DNA of 64,000 nt, taken from Escherichia coli (GTDB lineage Bacteria; Pseudomonadota; Gammaproteobacteria; Enterobacterales; Enterobacteriaceae). The notes beneath the pieces were generated by a model, which made no database searches, had not been told where the DNA came from, and saw only the letters and a list, made by a program, of their open reading frames with translations. Position numbers and translations under genes: made by a program. Below are positions 5,850 through 14,104 of this stretch, in pieces. Location of the stretch: NCBI RefSeq assembly GCF_013122565.1, contig NZ_CP053258.1. One strand, given 5' to 3'. How positions within the stretch are numbered: the stretch's first letter is position 1; the number at the start of each line of letters is the position of its first letter.

Positions 5850-7274
5850 ATGGATGGCATGGGATGGATGATTATTTTGGTACTTCCCTTTCTTTGGATG
5901 GGGTATGGACTGGCGTTGTTAATCATAACGGGGTGCGCTTTTGAATCTAAGGGGATTCGTCGCGTTCTGCTATGGGGTGTTGCGCCTCAGTTTATTATTC
6001 TTTGTATTGCGACCTTATTGCTTTACTGGACTAACTCTCGGTTAATTTATGTTTTTGTCTTTTTTCAGCCAGTTTTATGTATCACCACGGCAATTTTTTT
6101 ATTTGCTGGTAAAAAAACACAATATTCCAGATTGCTGTTTACTCTGTCTCATGTGATTTTTCTCGCTGGCGTTTTATATCAGGGGCATAGGGAAAATCTG
6201 CAATACATAATTAATAACGACTGGAAGGAATATAAAATAACGCGTTTATTTGAGCAAGTGCAGGACAATGGGGCGCATGCGCTGAATAACGATGTAACTT
6301 GTTCAGAATTAATGCAACTACTCACACTGGCAGCGGAACGTAATGACGTCAAAGAAGAGACGTTACGTACTCTTATTGCAAAGAAAGTATCGCCATTTCT
6401 GACAATGTCAGATAACTGTACGGGTGAGAATTCAGTAGAGACTTATTCTGTATATACTACGCCTTTTATGGCAGCTATTCAAAATCATAATATACATTCT
6501 GTCCGTTTTTTTAGTCAATTGCTTATGGGAAACTCATCAAAAGCAAAAAATAATCGTGACATTGTGCGCCGGGCAAACCCATTGATCGAAGTGTATAAAT
6601 ATAGTCATGGTTCTAAAAAACAACGTAAGTCAGGGTTAGAAATAAGTAAGCAATTAATGGCCATTATGCCAGAGCTATTAACAGATGCCGTCTGGCGTGC
6701 CGTGCTCAATGTATATGATGCCGATGCAGCACGATGGTTCTGGCGTAAGCAACCACCAGAAAATCGGTTGTATCGCTTAAAGGCTATGGCATTAATACCA
6801 CAAACGGATGCGCTATTGGCGGAGATTCGACAAACTCCAGAGGTACTGAATATCTCGTCTGAGGGAGACCTGAATGAAGAGGAGTTTCTCCATTTCTTAA
6901 TTTATGGAGGAGATACCGCTGTAATACATGCACTGGTTGAAAAAGGAATAGTTAACTGGCAGCACCTTATGAACATTGAGGGGTTTGATAAGGACCCCTT
7001 AATTTGGGCTATTTCAAAACTGGGAGAAAATGACAATGACCGGGAGGTTTTGACATTAATTATTCATGATATTAATGCGCAAAATGCACTGCCGGAGGAT
7101 CGCATAGCCAAATATTTAACGCGGACGGGATCAATGGGCGAGATTTTTTTAAAGGCGGGCGTACATTGTGATAAGTTATATGCGGCAATTGAGTCCGACA
7201 AAAAGCGAAATAATGGTATGTATAGTCAAAACGCCAGGGAAGAAGTGGATCGAGTATGTACGCCCGCAAAATAG
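5850..7274 (+). CDS. Hypothetical membrane protein, N-terminal ~4 TM helices plus ankyrin-repeat-like C-terminal region (paralogue A)
   Basis: 474 aa ORF; AAGGA RBS ~10 nt upstream; hydrophobic N-terminus; ankyrin-like motifs (TPFMAAIQNHNIHSVRFF, GDTAVIHALVEKG); AT-rich codon usage. Confidence 0.6.
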   Translation: MDGMGWMIILVLPFLWMGYGLALLIITGCAFESKGIRRVLLWGVAPQFIILCIATLLLYWTNSRLIYVFVFFQPVLCITTAIFLFAGKKTQYSRLLFTLSHVIFLAGVLYQGHRENLQYIINNDWKEYKITRLFEQVQDNGAHALNNDVTCSELMQLLTLAAERNDVKEETLRTLIAKKVSPFLTMSDNCTGENSVETYSVYTTPFMAAIQNHNIHSVRFFSQLLMGNSSKAKNNRDIVRRANPLIEVYKYSHGSKKQRKSGLEISKQLMAIMPELLTDAVWRAVLNVYDADAARWFWRKQPPENRLYRLKAMALIPQTDALLAEIRQTPEVLNISSEGDLNEEEFLHFLIYGGDTAVIHALVEKGIVNWQHLMNIEGFDKDPLIWAISKLGENDNDREVLTLIIHDINAQNALPEDRIAKYLTRTGSMGEIFLKAGVHCDKLYAAIESDKKRNNGMYSQNAREEVDRVCTPAK

Positions 7275-7319
7275 GTGCAGTTTGGGGCGGTTAAGGAATA
7301 AAAAATAAAGGACTAAGCC

Positions 7320-8729
7320 ATGCGTAATGATGAATTTTTTCACCATTTTACTTTGACACTGTTTATGTTGGGTGGCTATCTACTGACTCTGTTCATCGTT
7401 ATCGTCCTTTCCTTTTTTAGCCCATTATGCCGAAAAATGGTCTTCCATGGCGCATTGCCGCAATTGATGATGGCAATAACGGTGTCGCTCGGTTTATATT
7501 ATCTGGAACGATACTCTTTTGCGGTATGGGCCTTACTGGATTCTTTTTGGATATTATTCCCCTGCCTGTTATTGATCATAGTGATAAATAAATGGTTAAA
7601 GCGTTCCCTTGTATGGATGAGTGCTTGTCATATTATGTGCTTGCTGTTGTTACTCTGGCAGGTGCAGCCCACGTTATTTAAAATCAGCTTTTATCACCAA
7701 CAATTAAGTCACCTGGCTCAGGCAGAGCAGGAAAATTTCCGCACACTGGATGCGATTCACGATACGCAACGTCTGGAAGCGATGTTACTGGTAGCGTTGA
7801 AATCCCCGGAAAATCAAACCTCTGAAAATGCCTTTCGCTATCTGTCAGGGCGAATCTCACCATTTGCTATACCTTCCATTGGCGATGAACAGTATTCTAC
7901 CCGCACTTTTTTTACGATTGCGTTGGAACATTACAACGCCCGCGCCATCCGCGCGTTTAGCCGCTTTCTGCAAGGAAATTCCTCAAAAGCGCAGGAATAT
8001 CGTGCGATTGTTCATCAAAAAAATCCACTGCAGCAGATGTACCGGGGAATAAGTTTGCCAATTCGTTTTAGTGAAGAAGAGATCGCCCGTCACATTATTG
8101 CCGCTCGCGAGATAAGCCTCACCTTACTGCCCCTGATGCCAGAATTATTAAACGAAGAGGCGTATGCAAATGTCATTGATGCTTATGACAGCGCAACGCT
8201 GAAGGCTTTTTGGCAGTTCCAGCTGCCGCCTACGCCGGTTTTGCGCCTGGAAGCGATGTCGGTAATTCCCATGACAGCGGCACTGGTTCAACAGGTGAGA
8301 GAGTCACCAAAACGGCTTGAACTGGAAGATAAAAGTGGCAGGACAGTACTAACTTACATCGTGCGCTTTGGAAATATTGCCGCAGTACAGGCACTGATTG
8401 ACGCTAATCTGATCGACTGGCAACGGCTTCGCCAATCGACAGAAAGGTCAACACCATTATTACTGGCGACCTGGCGACAAAAATACGACGATGATCATGT
8501 AATCTTCCCATTGATTTTAAAGGACATGCTGGCAAAAAATGCGCCACCCTCAGCAGAGGAAATAATGAACTGCCTTAAGGATGGTATGACCGCAGATGAT
8601 TTTTTCTCTGCCGGAATGAGCAACACGCAATTCTGTTCTGCGATTGAACAAAGCCTCCAGGCGAAAACGTCAGTATTACCGGCGAATCGATTACGCCATC
8701 TGCAATCCTCGCTGTGTGCAAAGCTGTAA
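7320..8729 (+). CDS. Hypothetical membrane protein, paralogue of 5850..7274 (paralogue B)
   Basis: 469 aa; AAGGA RBS; shares motifs with upstream ORF (FSRFLQGNSSKAQ vs FSQLLMGNSSKAK; MPELLNEEAYANVIDAYD vs MPELLTDAVWRAVLNVYD). Confidence 0.6.
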   Translation: MRNDEFFHHFTLTLFMLGGYLLTLFIVIVLSFFSPLCRKMVFHGALPQLMMAITVSLGLYYLERYSFAVWALLDSFWILFPCLLLIIVINKWLKRSLVWMSACHIMCLLLLLWQVQPTLFKISFYHQQLSHLAQAEQENFRTLDAIHDTQRLEAMLLVALKSPENQTSENAFRYLSGRISPFAIPSIGDEQYSTRTFFTIALEHYNARAIRAFSRFLQGNSSKAQEYRAIVHQKNPLQQMYRGISLPIRFSEEEIARHIIAAREISLTLLPLMPELLNEEAYANVIDAYDSATLKAFWQFQLPPTPVLRLEAMSVIPMTAALVQQVRESPKRLELEDKSGRTVLTYIVRFGNIAAVQALIDANLIDWQRLRQSTERSTPLLLATWRQKYDDDHVIFPLILKDMLAKNAPPSAEEIMNCLKDGMTADDFFSAGMSNTQFCSAIEQSLQAKTSVLPANRLRHLQSSLCAKL

Positions 8730-11064: not shown

Positions 11065-11073
11065 ATTCGCTGT

Positions 11074-11099
11074 TCCCGGTAGCAGAATTGCTACCGGGG
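11074..11099. terminator. Hairpin downstream of ygiQ
   Basis: tcccggtagca-gaat-tgctaccggga inverted repeat between convergent genes. Confidence 0.4.
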
Positions 11100-11134
11100 A
11101 TATTACTTCAGAATCTATCTCATTAGGCATTTAT

Positions 11135-11491
11135 TTATATGCCGAAATGTATCATGTGTTTATTTTCTCTGATAGCTTTTTGTATTACTTCTGATAAAGA
11201 AAGAAGTAAAGGATCGTGCTGGAATTTTGTATCCGATACAACAATATGAAGAAACTGATTTAATGAATCTGGTGGGATAATGGTGACTCCGTAGCGAGCA
11301 AGCGCATAACCTGGACGATTTAAACTATGATAGAAGGTTTTTATTGTCTGAAGTTGTTCCCACCATTCATCAATATAAATGTCATCATCAATATAAACGC
11401 AATTATATTTTTCAGGTTCATAGTGACCATAATCTTTATCAGTATCAATTTCATCAATAATACCAAATTCGGTTTTAATCATAATGACCAT
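11135..11491 (-). CDS. Hypothetical small acidic protein
   Basis: 118 aa ORF in strongly AT-rich DNA; no recognisable domain; same strand and immediately downstream of the YqhG-like gene. Confidence 0.45.
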   Translation of the reverse strand: MVIMIKTEFGIIDEIDTDKDYGHYEPEKYNCVYIDDDIYIDEWWEQLQTIKTFYHSLNRPGYALARYGVTIIPPDSLNQFLHIVVSDTKFQHDPLLLSLSEVIQKAIRENKHMIHFGI

Positions 11492-11673
11492 GCTTTTTAA
11501 TTGTTATGCAGAAAAATGCCAGGAAAATGATTTAAATTGAATTTTCTGGGGTGATTTGTAATCTTGCTTGTCATATAGATGAGCCATCCAACGAGGTTGT
11601 GCAACATTTAATGAGGGAGACTGGACCAGAACAAGGCTGGGGATTAATATAGAAATGATTAACAATAGTGGCT

Positions 11674-12597
11674 TCATTTTGTCGTTGTTTCCATATTATT
11701 TTTAGCAGATTCCGCCTGTAATTTTTTGATTTCTTGTTCTCTGTGGCGTGCAAACTCTTTACGGGTCGTGACGCGTTCATACAAAGTAATATCGGTAATC
11801 CCCCCACTCCGCATGCCCAAATGACCTCGTATATCCATATCAAATGTTCCAGCTATCCGGACATAATCGCCATTTAGCTGACGAGCACGAGTTAAGGTCA
11901 CGACTGGGTTTGGGAAATCAATATCCAACCACACGCTATCACTTTGAACAAAATTTTCCCAGGATTCTTTATTTAAATATAAGGCGTTGCCTTCAAACTC
12001 AATATTGCCGACACCTTCGACAACCACCTTTTGCAAATGGTATTTTTCTGGCTGCGCAAGTAGTGCCGTCATTGATATCGAATGAGAAAAATGATCGCTT
12101 GAGGGTTCATTAATTACAGCTCTGCGTTTCATTCGCGTATCTTCACGTATTTCTGCCCGTAGACTGTTAGGCATTTCATTACCATCATCGATGTCTTCTA
12201 TTAGCCAGCGATGATTATCATTTTCACGAACCAGCATCAGCCCCAGTAACCGGTGGACATTGGTGCGATTTTGTTTGATAACCAACTGCAACAGTACATG
12301 CGTTCGGCCGCCATTTAGGTGTGTGCTTTGGATTATTTCTGCAGAAACGAAAGTATCATCAACACAGCGACACAAAAGATTATTATTCAGCCAGGGTGTC
12401 ATTTTGCCAGGAGTAGCGCTCATATTACTTCGCAAATCGAGACTGAATTCATCGGTTATTGGTATATCGCCATTACTGGTCAATGGTTGGTACAAACGTT
12501 CTATCGCTTCATTAATCGATTCTTTGCACAACACGTTTCCGCTGAAGCCACAGAACAGCAGAATAAAAAAACAGGTGTGCCAGCGTCGCATAATCAT
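11674..12597 (-). CDS. Secreted protein, distant YqhG (DUF3828-like) paralogue
   Basis: 307 aa; N-terminal signal peptide (FFILLFCGFSGNVLC); weak shared motifs with YqhG (CxC-D, RWLIEDI vs RWVIDDI). Confidence 0.55.
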   Translation of the reverse strand: MIMRRWHTCFFILLFCGFSGNVLCKESINEAIERLYQPLTSNGDIPITDEFSLDLRSNMSATPGKMTPWLNNNLLCRCVDDTFVSAEIIQSTHLNGGRTHVLLQLVIKQNRTNVHRLLGLMLVRENDNHRWLIEDIDDGNEMPNSLRAEIREDTRMKRRAVINEPSSDHFSHSISMTALLAQPEKYHLQKVVVEGVGNIEFEGNALYLNKESWENFVQSDSVWLDIDFPNPVVTLTRARQLNGDYVRIAGTFDMDIRGHLGMRSGGITDITLYERVTTRKEFARHREQEIKKLQAESAKNNMETTTK

Positions 12598-12636
12598 GCC
12601 CTTATGTTTGGCTTTTTCTTAGCAAACAGCCTCTAA

Positions 12637-12669
12637 CCCGGCAACTGACATGCTGCCGGGGATTTTTTT
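12637..12669 (+). terminator. Intrinsic-terminator-like hairpin plus T-run
   Basis: cccggca...tgccggg stem followed by TTTTTTT on the + strand. Confidence 0.45.
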
Positions 12670-12670
12670 A

Positions 12671-12928
12671 TCATTCTGCGTACATACGCATGCAGCGCAG
12701 GCAATCAAAATAGTCCTGTGCATCAAGACGCGTATTGGCTCTGTTAGCTTCGGATTTGGCAGCATAGATTTGTGGGCGTAGTGCTTTCATATCCTGCTCA
12801 AGCCGGGCGATTTTGGCATTTAATGTTTGTACATTGCTCGCCAGTTGATTGACCTTTTGCTCATTGACGCAGCCACTGAGCAAGCAGGTTGCCAGAACAA
12901 CAGCTCCCACGGTGAAAATCGTTTTCAT
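12671..12928 (-). CDS. yqhH: Lpp-like lipoprotein YqhH
   Basis: 85 aa; lipobox LLSGC; coiled-coil Lpp-like sequence. Confidence 0.9.
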
Positions 12929-12978: not shown

Positions 12979-13905
12979 TCATTGCTTTAATCTGGCGGCG
13001 GTTTTCGCCTCAATCTGCTTAAGTAGGCTGCCGCTGTTCGGGCGGATAAAATCAGCGATTTCCCACTTACCTTCGCGCCGCTGTAAAACCAGCTCTTGCT
13101 CTTCGTTGTTGCCATTGGTCAGCGTAAAACGAACATGAATGCGGGCGGAATCGGCGGTTTTCTCCAGGACTCGAATTTCATCAACGCGTGAAAATAGCGA
13201 CTCTTCGCCAAAACAGATCGGATTGTCGTAAATAAATTGCCGTTCTATTTGCATATCTTCATCGGGATTGTTGGCCGTCTTGAAGGTGGTTTTATAGAAG
13301 GCATTGACCGCCTGGCGGTAAGAGTCGGAAACCACCCACGTCCACGGCCAGCTATAATCAGCAATATGTTCAAAGAGTTCAGCAACAAAGGATTCTGGCT
13401 GTTCTTTTTGCAACGAAGCTAAAGCGGCCAGCGTTTTTTCATTCTCGCTATTAACGGCATGCCAGATACTGCCATGATTGCTGACAATATCATCAATGAC
13501 CCAACGACCATTTTCCGCCACCATTTTCAGTGTCTGTGTGGTCTTTTCTTTATCATCTTTAAAGATACGAAAGCGCACAACGGCATCGGCATGATCGACG
13601 TCAGTTTGGGTTATCGCTACGCTTTCTAACACCAGCTCGCCAAAATCCTGACAATCACAAACCGGATCATAATCCAGCCAGCCAATATTGCCCGGTAGTG
13701 TAAGATTGTCGTTCAGGGTAAGCGCCTGTTGAATACGCGCTGAAGTTATCGCCCGCTCTCCGGTTTCACCGAAATAAGGCGTACTGGCATCTGATTTATA
13801 GTTCTGATAAATCTGCCGGACTGTTTGTTCTACGGTCTGTGAAGGAGGCTGCGCGTGTACGGTAAAACTTGCCAGGGCTGCTAAAAACAGAAGTATTATT
13901 TTCAT
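12979..13905 (-). CDS. yqhG: Secreted protein YqhG (DUF3828)
   Basis: 308 aa; signal peptide MKIILLFLAALASFTVHA. Confidence 0.9.
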   Translation of the reverse strand: MKIILLFLAALASFTVHAQPPSQTVEQTVRQIYQNYKSDASTPYFGETGERAITSARIQQALTLNDNLTLPGNIGWLDYDPVCDCQDFGELVLESVAITQTDVDHADAVVRFRIFKDDKEKTTQTLKMVAENGRWVIDDIVSNHGSIWHAVNSENEKTLAALASLQKEQPESFVAELFEHIADYSWPWTWVVSDSYRQAVNAFYKTTFKTANNPDEDMQIERQFIYDNPICFGEESLFSRVDEIRVLEKTADSARIHVRFTLTNGNNEEQELVLQRREGKWEIADFIRPNSGSLLKQIEAKTAARLKQ

Positions 13906-14104
13906 CTGTTTTTCACCTCTCCGTTGCGTTTATCCCGGGTGTAGATGAGTTGTTCCTTTAAGAGCTTCCGGCTCTGCATGATGATGTCCTTATATTTGGC
14001 ATTCCTGAACAAGGAAGAGTAACAATGGGCAGGACGCGAGGGGAATAAATGATTTCTGAAAAGTCCGGTAGCGGAACATTACCGCCACCGGGAAAATTTG
14101 CACG

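Follow-up and report, generated by a model that had tools for sequence, protein, structure and literature searches.

The stretch of DNA analyzed here, referred to below as the window, comprises 64,000 nucleotides (nt) of Escherichia coli contig NZ_CP053258.1 (RefSeq assembly GCF_013122565.1). Between ygiQ and yqhH the window carries an AT-rich accessory segment of ∼1.5 kb (positions 11105-12636). Its content is a gene, which we call X, for a predicted secreted protein of 305 amino acids, an apparent 57-codon remnant of a second copy of yqhG, and a gene for a 115-residue protein, p115. An earlier reading of the DNA, made from the sequence letters and hereafter called the original prediction, had described a two-gene islet; the yqhG remnant is a third element at this site.

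The GC content of the segment is 38.9% (X 42.5%, the p115 gene 31.9%) as against 55.1% for ygiQ and 51.2% for the whole window, in line with the AT richness originally noted. The genes flanking the segment are 96-99.6% identical to E. coli. In strain K-12 the segment is absent, and the convergent genes ygiQ and yqhH are separated by just 42 bp, made up of one hairpin; alignment of the K-12 junction returns these 42 bp only. The segment is thus accessory, as had been supposed, and occurs in ∼2% of the complete E. coli genomes searched (128 of 5426), always at the ygiQ/yqhH site and always in the chromosome. Indeed, all 129 copies found in E. coli assemblies are chromosomal and none is on a plasmid. 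A single match spans at least 80% of the segment in 121 genomes, and in all 23 genomes listed from this class the match is full length with two annotated protein genes. The remaining 7 of the 128 carriers hold only part of the segment. The resident yqhG gene is matched in at least 5423 of the 5426 genomes, whereas X is accessory.

No integrase, transposase, or tRNA gene was found among the window open reading frames (ORFs) in or beside positions 11105-12636. The segment also lacks the marks of a mobile island, being confined to the chromosome and having as its sole repeat a diverged second terminator hairpin (phage and PLSDB collections were outside this search). Scans against Pfam, NCBIfam, PADLOC, and PHROGs detected no toxin, integrase, or defense signature in the segment and gave no significant match for X, the 57-residue ORF, or p115.

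Gene X occupies positions 11674-12591 on the minus strand and is annotated in RefSeq as a hypothetical protein. The two ORFs originally listed, of 307 residues (11674-12597, minus strand) and 118 residues (11135-11491, minus strand), do exist, but the true starts lie a few codons further in. Specifically, homologues and the RefSeq annotation of identical loci place the start of X at the third codon, giving 305 residues, with the ATG at 12597 as an alternative, and homologues and the RefSeq annotation place that of p115 at the fourth codon. The homologues of X fall into 14 clusters of 53-95% identity with 98 invariant alignment columns. Inspection of the alignment showed an N-terminal basic region, a hydrophobic stretch of ∼17 residues, and A-x-A-like sites in all 14 homologues; a conserved lipobox cysteine is absent from the same alignment.

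The first half of X is related to the product of the neighboring yqhG gene. BLASTP aligned X and YqhG over 124 residues within the first ∼135 of X (E 2e-5, 20% identity), taking in the C-x-C-x-D region and the RW[LV]I[ED]DI motif. Profile-profile comparison with hhalign of the X family (14 clusters, alignment A1) with YqhG-like neighbors (seven sequences, alignment A3) gave a probability of 96.3% and an E-value of 1.9e-9. Because signal peptides can inflate profile scores, the comparison was repeated on the mature N-terminal domains; it again gave a probability of 95.9% and an E-value of 5.7e-9 over 107 columns. The N-terminal ∼110 residues of X, a DUF3828-like domain of the YqhG/Tai3/YbjP type (residues ∼24-135; 12187-12522, minus strand), thus show real and ancient homology with the DUF3828 domain of YqhG. 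The C-terminal halves of the two proteins are unrelated (hhalign probability 0.6%). Consequently the original proposal of a YqhG paralogue holds for the N-terminal domain, where the profile-profile similarity is significant, and fails for the rest of the protein, as X is not a paralogue over its full length.

The C-terminal domain of X (residues ∼170-283; 11743-12084, minus strand) groups with secreted proteins of a large family that has no name. A profile of the C-terminal ∼115 residues searched against 1.84 billion representative proteins produced 2558 matches at E ≤ 1e-3, 965 of them at E ≤ 1e-10. These relatives are mostly proteins of 130-160 residues composed of a hydrophobic, signal peptide-like N terminus and this single domain, with the motif ..NPEKYHGK.V.V.G..NLEFEGNAIYL..ED...N.LW...NG.YV.IEG.FD....GH.G..SG.I..ITRY. 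All members are called "hypothetical" in their source databases. None of 30 sampled members matched Pfam, none of 10 scanned members matched NCBIfam above noise, and the family profile found no sequence in the PDB. The genomic context of the stand-alone proteins is uninformative, the contigs being only 1-2 kb long. The domain is probably OB-fold-like (OB, oligonucleotide/oligosaccharide binding), as judged from a structure model.

Three further observations concern this family. It amounts to 2558 clusters at 50% identity and has near-invariant glutamate, tryptophan, glycine-histidine, and arginine positions. A paralogue of 381-386 residues (L015 7442-8602, protein P0064; Salmonella P0213) combines a DUF3828-like N terminus with two copies of the X C-terminal domain and lies at the same dkgA-ygiQ locus in one enterobacterial lineage. 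In Salmonella enterica this paralogue forms a cluster of 294 member sequences.

Immediately downstream of X is a 57-codon ORF (11504-11677, minus strand) whose ATG overlaps the X stop codon in the sequence ATGA. The same 4-nt overlap is the arrangement found at the intact X/yqhG pairs of other taxa. Of the encoded protein, the ORF retains a signal peptide and the ∼20 residues that follow it, and over ∼40 codons its DNA aligns in frame with the X/yqhG junctions of four other taxa. Alignment with the YqhG family by hhalign gave a probability of 78.5% and an E-value of 1.7e-5 over residues 1-28. BLASTP of the 57-residue sequence against YqhG found no match because the region of similarity is a signal peptide. 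In E. coli CFIAFB20140388 the ORF has a stop at codon 27, and RefSeq leaves it unannotated. On this evidence we read the ORF as the dead 5′ stub of a second yqhG gene (yqhG′). With that reading the islet resolves into X, a yqhG′ stub, and the p115 gene, which would make it colinear with the X-yqhG-p115 block of Escherichia albertii, with most of yqhG′ lost.

The presence of a dead stub raises the question of whether the whole segment is a non-functional relic, that is, decaying DNA in which the remaining ORFs are intact by chance. Besides the stub, this would account for the seven partial segments, including those of strains AH02 and LP5-1, and for the fact that neither gene has a strong Shine-Dalgarno sequence on inspection or a promoter signal above background. 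In AH02 and LP5-1, the two partial variants examined, X is truncated (in AH02 it is fused to the stub) and there is an extra 210-residue CxxC ORF; a remnant of the 210-residue gene also follows X in Salmonella. Selection argues to the contrary. Between the window and CFIAFB20140388, X has a ratio of nonsynonymous to synonymous substitution (dN/dS) of 0.28 and p115 one of 0.23, like the 0.23 of the resident yqhG (ygiQ 0.00); against Escherichia sp. MOD1-EC7003, X has 0.19. X and p115 are therefore under moderate purifying selection, and both genes are real. The preservation of at least 80% of the segment in 121 genomes and the conservation of X across genera and of p115 (21 invariant columns in 30 sequences) tell in the same direction, and we judge that a relic is very unlikely.

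The 210-residue ORF, which has an N-terminal CxxC...CxxC pattern, lies between the yqhG′ stub and the p115 gene in the variant E. coli islets (L017 3000-3632 in AH02). The Salmonella remnant is a 34-residue piece of its C terminus (L002 8869-8973). The module may once have included this ORF as well.

The last gene of the segment (11135-11482, minus strand) encodes p115, a cytoplasmic protein of an unnamed family with a DMP12/YfbM-like fold. With an isoelectric point (pI) of 4.9, 19 Asp/Glu against 10 Lys/Arg residues, and a net charge of about −9, p115 is moderately acidic, and "highly acidic", as it had been called, is an overstatement. The absence of a recognizable domain was correctly noted, as none is found in Pfam, NCBIfam, PHROGs, or PADLOC. 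The family comprises 47 clusters. The structural model of p115 has a mean predicted local distance difference test (pLDDT) score of 95.8 and the DMP12 fold, and a Foldseek search of AFDB50 returned proteins of Hungatella, Clostridium, Niallia, Bacillus, and similar genera. A PDB profile search with p115 was empty.

Relatives of p115 outside Escherichia (57-68% identity) are encoded by stand-alone genes in Firmicutes-like contexts. Their settings include a spore germination-type permease with insertion sequence elements, the vicinity of dnaG-sigA, and a position beside parA on RepA_N conjugative plasmids. The family is shared by Firmicutes and Escherichia, and because the closest non-Escherichia relatives sit in such contexts, the p115 gene itself probably crossed phyla at some point. 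The most distant relatives (46% identity), on RepA_N plasmid contigs L008-L011, directly follow parA/DUF5388 partition genes. These contigs also hold type IV secretion system pilin and TraC-like genes, and the position is one at which anti-restriction or anti-defense genes might be expected.

X and p115 do not travel as a pair. X occurs without p115 in five contexts (L015, L019, L020, L022, and Salmonella L002), and relatives of p115 occur without X in all Firmicutes-like contexts. In E. albertii the two genes are separated by yqhG. p115 is probably functionally independent of X. The toxin/immunity-like pairing that had been raised for checking is contradicted by the independent distribution of the two families, and neither a toxin-like domain nor a toxin-like partner was found.

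The segment is bounded by two related hairpins. The right one (12637-12669), with a run of seven T residues on the plus strand, is the orthologue of the hairpin that forms the K-12 ygiQ/yqhH terminator. The left one (CCCGGTAGC..GCTACCGGG; 11071-11102), directly past the ygiQ stop codon, is a second, diverged copy; it folds at −23.8 kcal/mol (z −6.0), and relative to the usual GGCAGC/GCTGCC stem both of its arms are changed in a compensating manner, so that they still pair. The K-12 sequence at 2508-2537 matches either end of the segment, namely the orthologous copy (12637-12660) and the diverged copy (11071-11102). In the direction from yqhH to X the right hairpin folds at −18 kcal/mol and is followed by UUAGAGG, which is no U-tract. 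The terminator-like hairpin originally noted at 12637-12669 is therefore present, with its T-run on the plus strand and without a U-tract for transcripts running into X; the left copy had been overlooked. The promoter and terminator scan, which gave no excess over shuffled sequence, skipped the real hairpins, whose loops or tails fell outside the scan rules. Another idea, that the hairpin of K-12 arose by recombination between the two copies in the window and would thereby prove deletion, was dropped because the difference amounts to only one or two single nucleotide polymorphisms.

The origin of the segment becomes clearer on comparison with related bacteria. In E. albertii (contigs L012-L014) the genes following dkgA in the same orientation are X, yqhG (DUF3828), a 115-residue gene, an lpp-like gene, and yqhH, with ygiQ convergent on them. 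More generally, X follows dkgA and immediately precedes a DUF3828 gene in E. albertii, in the enterobacterial lineages L015/L016, L019, L020/L021, and L022, and in Superficieibacter electus (L028), the last two having the same layout. In five of these six cases the coding sequences of X and the DUF3828 gene overlap by 1-4 nt. Some contigs lack the ygiQ end of the dkgA-ygiQ interval. The sole exception among the contexts inspected is a Salmonella locus near acnB.

The window itself retains a mark of this arrangement. Between dkgA and the resident yqhG lies a scar of X (13906-13995, minus strand) in which the ribosome-binding site, the ATG, and the first codons are kept; the same scar is present in K-12. 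By BLAST, window positions 14095-13968 align with E. albertii L012 4889-5012, and the match ends 18 nt inside X. The last ∼35 nt of the scar resemble the junction between the 3′ end of X and the 5′ end of yqhG (∼73% identity over 33 nt, alignment A7), a resemblance that is only suggestive. The alignment of the scar with the E. albertii dkgA-X spacer shows that E. coli lost X at this ancestral site and that the X of the islet is a second copy.

These observations tell against the view, offered as one possibility in the original prediction, of X as a horizontally acquired newcomer. X is the upstream neighbor of yqhG in other enterobacteria, and E. coli keeps its scar. A variant of that view would have both genes imported together between ygiQ and yqhH as a functional pair, for instance of toxin/immunity type. 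The low GC content (39% for the islet, 32% for p115), the patchy spread in ∼2% of E. coli, the Firmicutes-like settings of the p115 relatives, and the presence of both genes at this locus in E. albertii are all compatible with such a cassette. Nevertheless, it sits poorly with two families that are independently distributed, with the position of yqhG between the two genes in E. albertii, and with an X that is native to the locus. Nor is there an integrase, a transposase, a tRNA, a plasmid-borne copy in E. coli, or a toxin-like domain to suggest import as a unit, and we consider this explanation improbable.

In nucleotide sequence, E. coli and E. albertii are 74% identical in yqhG and 72% identical in X, as against 91-92.5% in the flanking dkgA, yqhD, and ygiQ genes. 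Either the two periplasmic proteins evolve with unusual speed or their genes represent old allelic lineages.

This divergence resembles that of an arms race and forms part of the case for an orphan immunity island, in which X and YqhG would be Tai3-like periplasmic immunity proteins against incoming type VI peptidoglycan amidase effectors and p115 a cytoplasmic one against a nuclease toxin, all being kept without a cognate toxin as a shield from competitors. DUF3828 includes Tai3, and RefSeq names some yqhG products "YqhG/Tai3 family". Moreover, gene content at the locus varies by strain and genus, with paralogues and remnants, and two AFDB relatives of p115 are labeled "Barstar domain-containing". 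A Barstar Pfam match was, however, found in 0 of 30 p115 family members, and PADLOC gave no match. No type VI secretion system (T6SS), effector, Rhs, contact-dependent inhibition, or toxin gene lies beside the module, either in the window from parC to yqhD or at the related loci inspected, and across genera the module keeps one chromosomal position near housekeeping genes and not beside secretion loci. At the position of the glutamine in the Tai3 QDx motif this X has valine (C-V-D, compared with C-Q-D in YqhG); glutamine occurs in 7 of 14 family members, and the Escherichia-type members have leucine or valine. Nor was an immunity role backed by published work on DUF1877 or on DMP12 as an immunity protein. 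We regard orphan immunity as unlikely, and the segment is not a toxin/immunity island.

The reading that we favor, and hold to be reasonably likely, is that a module specific to this locus, X-yqhG-(...)-p115, has a second copy in the segment at 11105-12636, where it has been relocated and has partly decayed. In E. albertii, Superficieibacter, and other Enterobacteriaceae the module, or its X-yqhG core, follows dkgA and occupies that side of the dkgA-ygiQ interval. In ∼2% of E. coli, the present genome included, an intact X stands downstream of yqhH, followed by the yqhG′ stub and then p115, between the two hairpin copies. Overall, X is a predicted periplasmic protein that represents a new domain fusion in the DUF3828 family, and the segment is an accessory remnant of an ordinary kind at a variable chromosomal locus.

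At the level of function, X would be exported to the periplasm and act with YqhG as a non-enzymatic binding protein, by analogy with other members of its family. The DUF3828 proteins characterized so far work by binding envelope partners, as in the blocking of the Tae3 amidase by Tai3 and the docking of YbjP on TolC (bioRxiv 10.1101/2025.03.19.644130). We favor for X a role in the periplasm as a binding partner of YqhG or as its accessory, because DUF3828 proteins bind partners and because the start and stop codons of X and yqhG overlap; the overlap, in five of six lineages, suggests co-expression, and joint action is probable. The OB-like C-terminal domain seen in the model may supply X with a second binding surface. 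The K-12 yqhGH promoter is activated by BglJ-RcsB (PMC3950696), and X is probably transcribed by read-through from this operon, since the hairpin between yqhH and X has no U-tract in that direction. For p115 the most likely role, by analogy with DMP12, would be to block the nucleic acid-binding site of another protein, as an acidic inhibitor or decoy in the cytoplasm.

A number of points weigh against this account. Concerning X, the DUF3828 model of Pfam (PF12883) scores only a sub-threshold i-E (independent E-value) of 0.025 (15.3 bits), and none of the 14 homologues reaches E ≤ 0.001 (best 6.9e-3). The DUF3828 match suggested for checking thus falls below the Pfam threshold, and the relationship holds at the level of the profile comparison with the YqhG N-terminal domain. 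The AlphaFold2 model of X, built from the 14-sequence alignment, has a pLDDT of 53, at which the OB-fold and NTF2-like assignments are only indicative. PDB sequence and profile searches with X, p115, YqhG, and the C-terminal domain profiles found nothing beyond chance. For p115 there was no Pfam match even at E ≤ 10 and no DMP12 match in 30 family members, and similarity of fold to DMP12 does not carry function across. Both mechanisms, for X and for p115, are inferred from homology or fold. As for read-through, shuffled sequence contains promoter-like matches at least as often as this region does.

The route by which the segment reached its present site also has more than one possible course. 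It could be a tandem duplication of the unit from X to the terminator followed by complementary deletions, or the recombinational import from a relative of a fragment comprising X, yqhG′, p115, and the terminator; both routes fit the two hairpin copies. X is found in 2 of 100,044 GTDB species representatives, at two loci, a figure that measures rarity and is not a full taxonomic map. Because only two representatives carry it, X is accessory everywhere. Ancestral presence with repeated loss and exchange by recombination at a conserved locus both fit this rarity.

The locus that houses the module has other variable content. The small lipoprotein gene beside yqhH at E. albertii L012 7421-7669 is a second Lpp-like gene (82 residues), and HIT-family and DUF6795 genes are also present at related loci. 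The lpp-like, HIT-family, and DUF6795 genes mark the dkgA-ygiQ interval as a general hotspot for genes that encode small envelope proteins. The resident genes of the window between the segment and dkgA, identified by their ORFs and RefSeq names, are yqhH (12671-12928, minus strand), on the same strand as X, and yqhG (12979-13905, minus strand), which forms an operon with yqhH upstream of X.

Between ftsP and ygiQ the window has another accessory segment (5850-8729, plus strand). It contains two paralogous ORFs of 474 and 469 residues (26% identity, E 3e-45) with an N-terminal part that looks hydrophobic. The 469-residue ORF has a weak ankyrin match (Ank_2, i-E 0.0015) and no match in NCBIfam, PADLOC, or PHROGs. 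Of 5426 E. coli genomes, only 13 contain this segment; in those looked at, AH02 and LP5-1, the X islet is of the truncated kind.

The locus is of interest on several counts. If X is the ancestral operon partner of YqhG, lost from most E. coli and intact in ∼2% of them and in E. albertii, it provides a handle on what YqhG binds or does. Two protein families without a Pfam or NCBIfam model are brought to light, namely the secreted C-terminal domain (2558 clusters) and the 115-residue DMP12-fold protein. The locus is also a small and clean example of a chromosomal hotspot that keeps scars, stubs, and relocated copies of one module. No new mechanism or system is indicated, and the value of the findings is incremental. 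A more far-reaching interpretation would make X and YqhG a fast-evolving two-protein periplasmic module for protection, by effector immunity or another envelope defense, with alleles shuffled among enterobacteria at one hotspot. The C-terminal domain of X would then represent an undescribed family of secreted binding domains (>2500 clusters) and p115 a DMP12-fold DNA-mimic or anti-nuclease family from Firmicutes plasmids; we think it doubtful that this is so.

Comparison with characterized proteins places these products more precisely. DMP12, a Neisseria DNA mimic (PDB 3W1O), binds HU (PMC3643605). According to the model p115 has the same fold, with 18% identity in the structural alignment and no detectable sequence similarity. 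The two families differ in taxonomic range, that of p115 being Firmicutes and a few Escherichia, and p115 is only moderately acidic. E. coli YfbM (DUF1877, PDB 1RYL), at 149 residues, is longer than p115, shares 13% identity with it, shows no Pfam match, and gives no functional guidance.

The C-terminal domain of X may be compared with the periplasmic OB-fold proteins of the BOF/YgiW type (PDB 1NNX and 3F1Z). No Pfam BOF match was obtained with X or with 30 relatives of the domain, and the fold is provisional given the low-confidence model. Tai3 (type VI amidase immunity protein 3, PDB 4HZ9) is a member of the same DUF3828 family as the N-terminal domain of X, but X has no adjacent Tae3 effector or T6SS genes. 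Its neighbors are ygiQ, yqhH, yqhG, dkgA, and yqhD, and the related loci are likewise without effector or T6SS genes. In addition, X does not conserve the inhibitory glutamine of the QDx motif and carries a further domain at its C terminus, and direct PDB searches with X, profiles included, gave no sequence match.

The closest counterpart of X is YqhG itself (E. coli b3013), a DUF3828 protein classed as "YbjP/YqhG" or "YqhG/Tai3". YqhG is predicted to be periplasmic and affects type 1 fimbriae, oxidative stress resistance, and urinary tract colonization in uropathogenic E. coli (PMC6727828). Where YqhG has a second, partial DUF3828 repeat, X has a C-terminal half that is unrelated to it and belongs to another family. 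In other respects the two proteins are alike. Both have a predicted N-terminal signal peptide and the motifs W-L-[ND]..C-x-C-[QV]-D and R-W-x-[IV]-[DE]-D-I, their genes lie at the same locus on the same strand and form an overlapping pair in other genera, and both evolve at a similar rate, with a dN/dS of ∼0.23-0.28.

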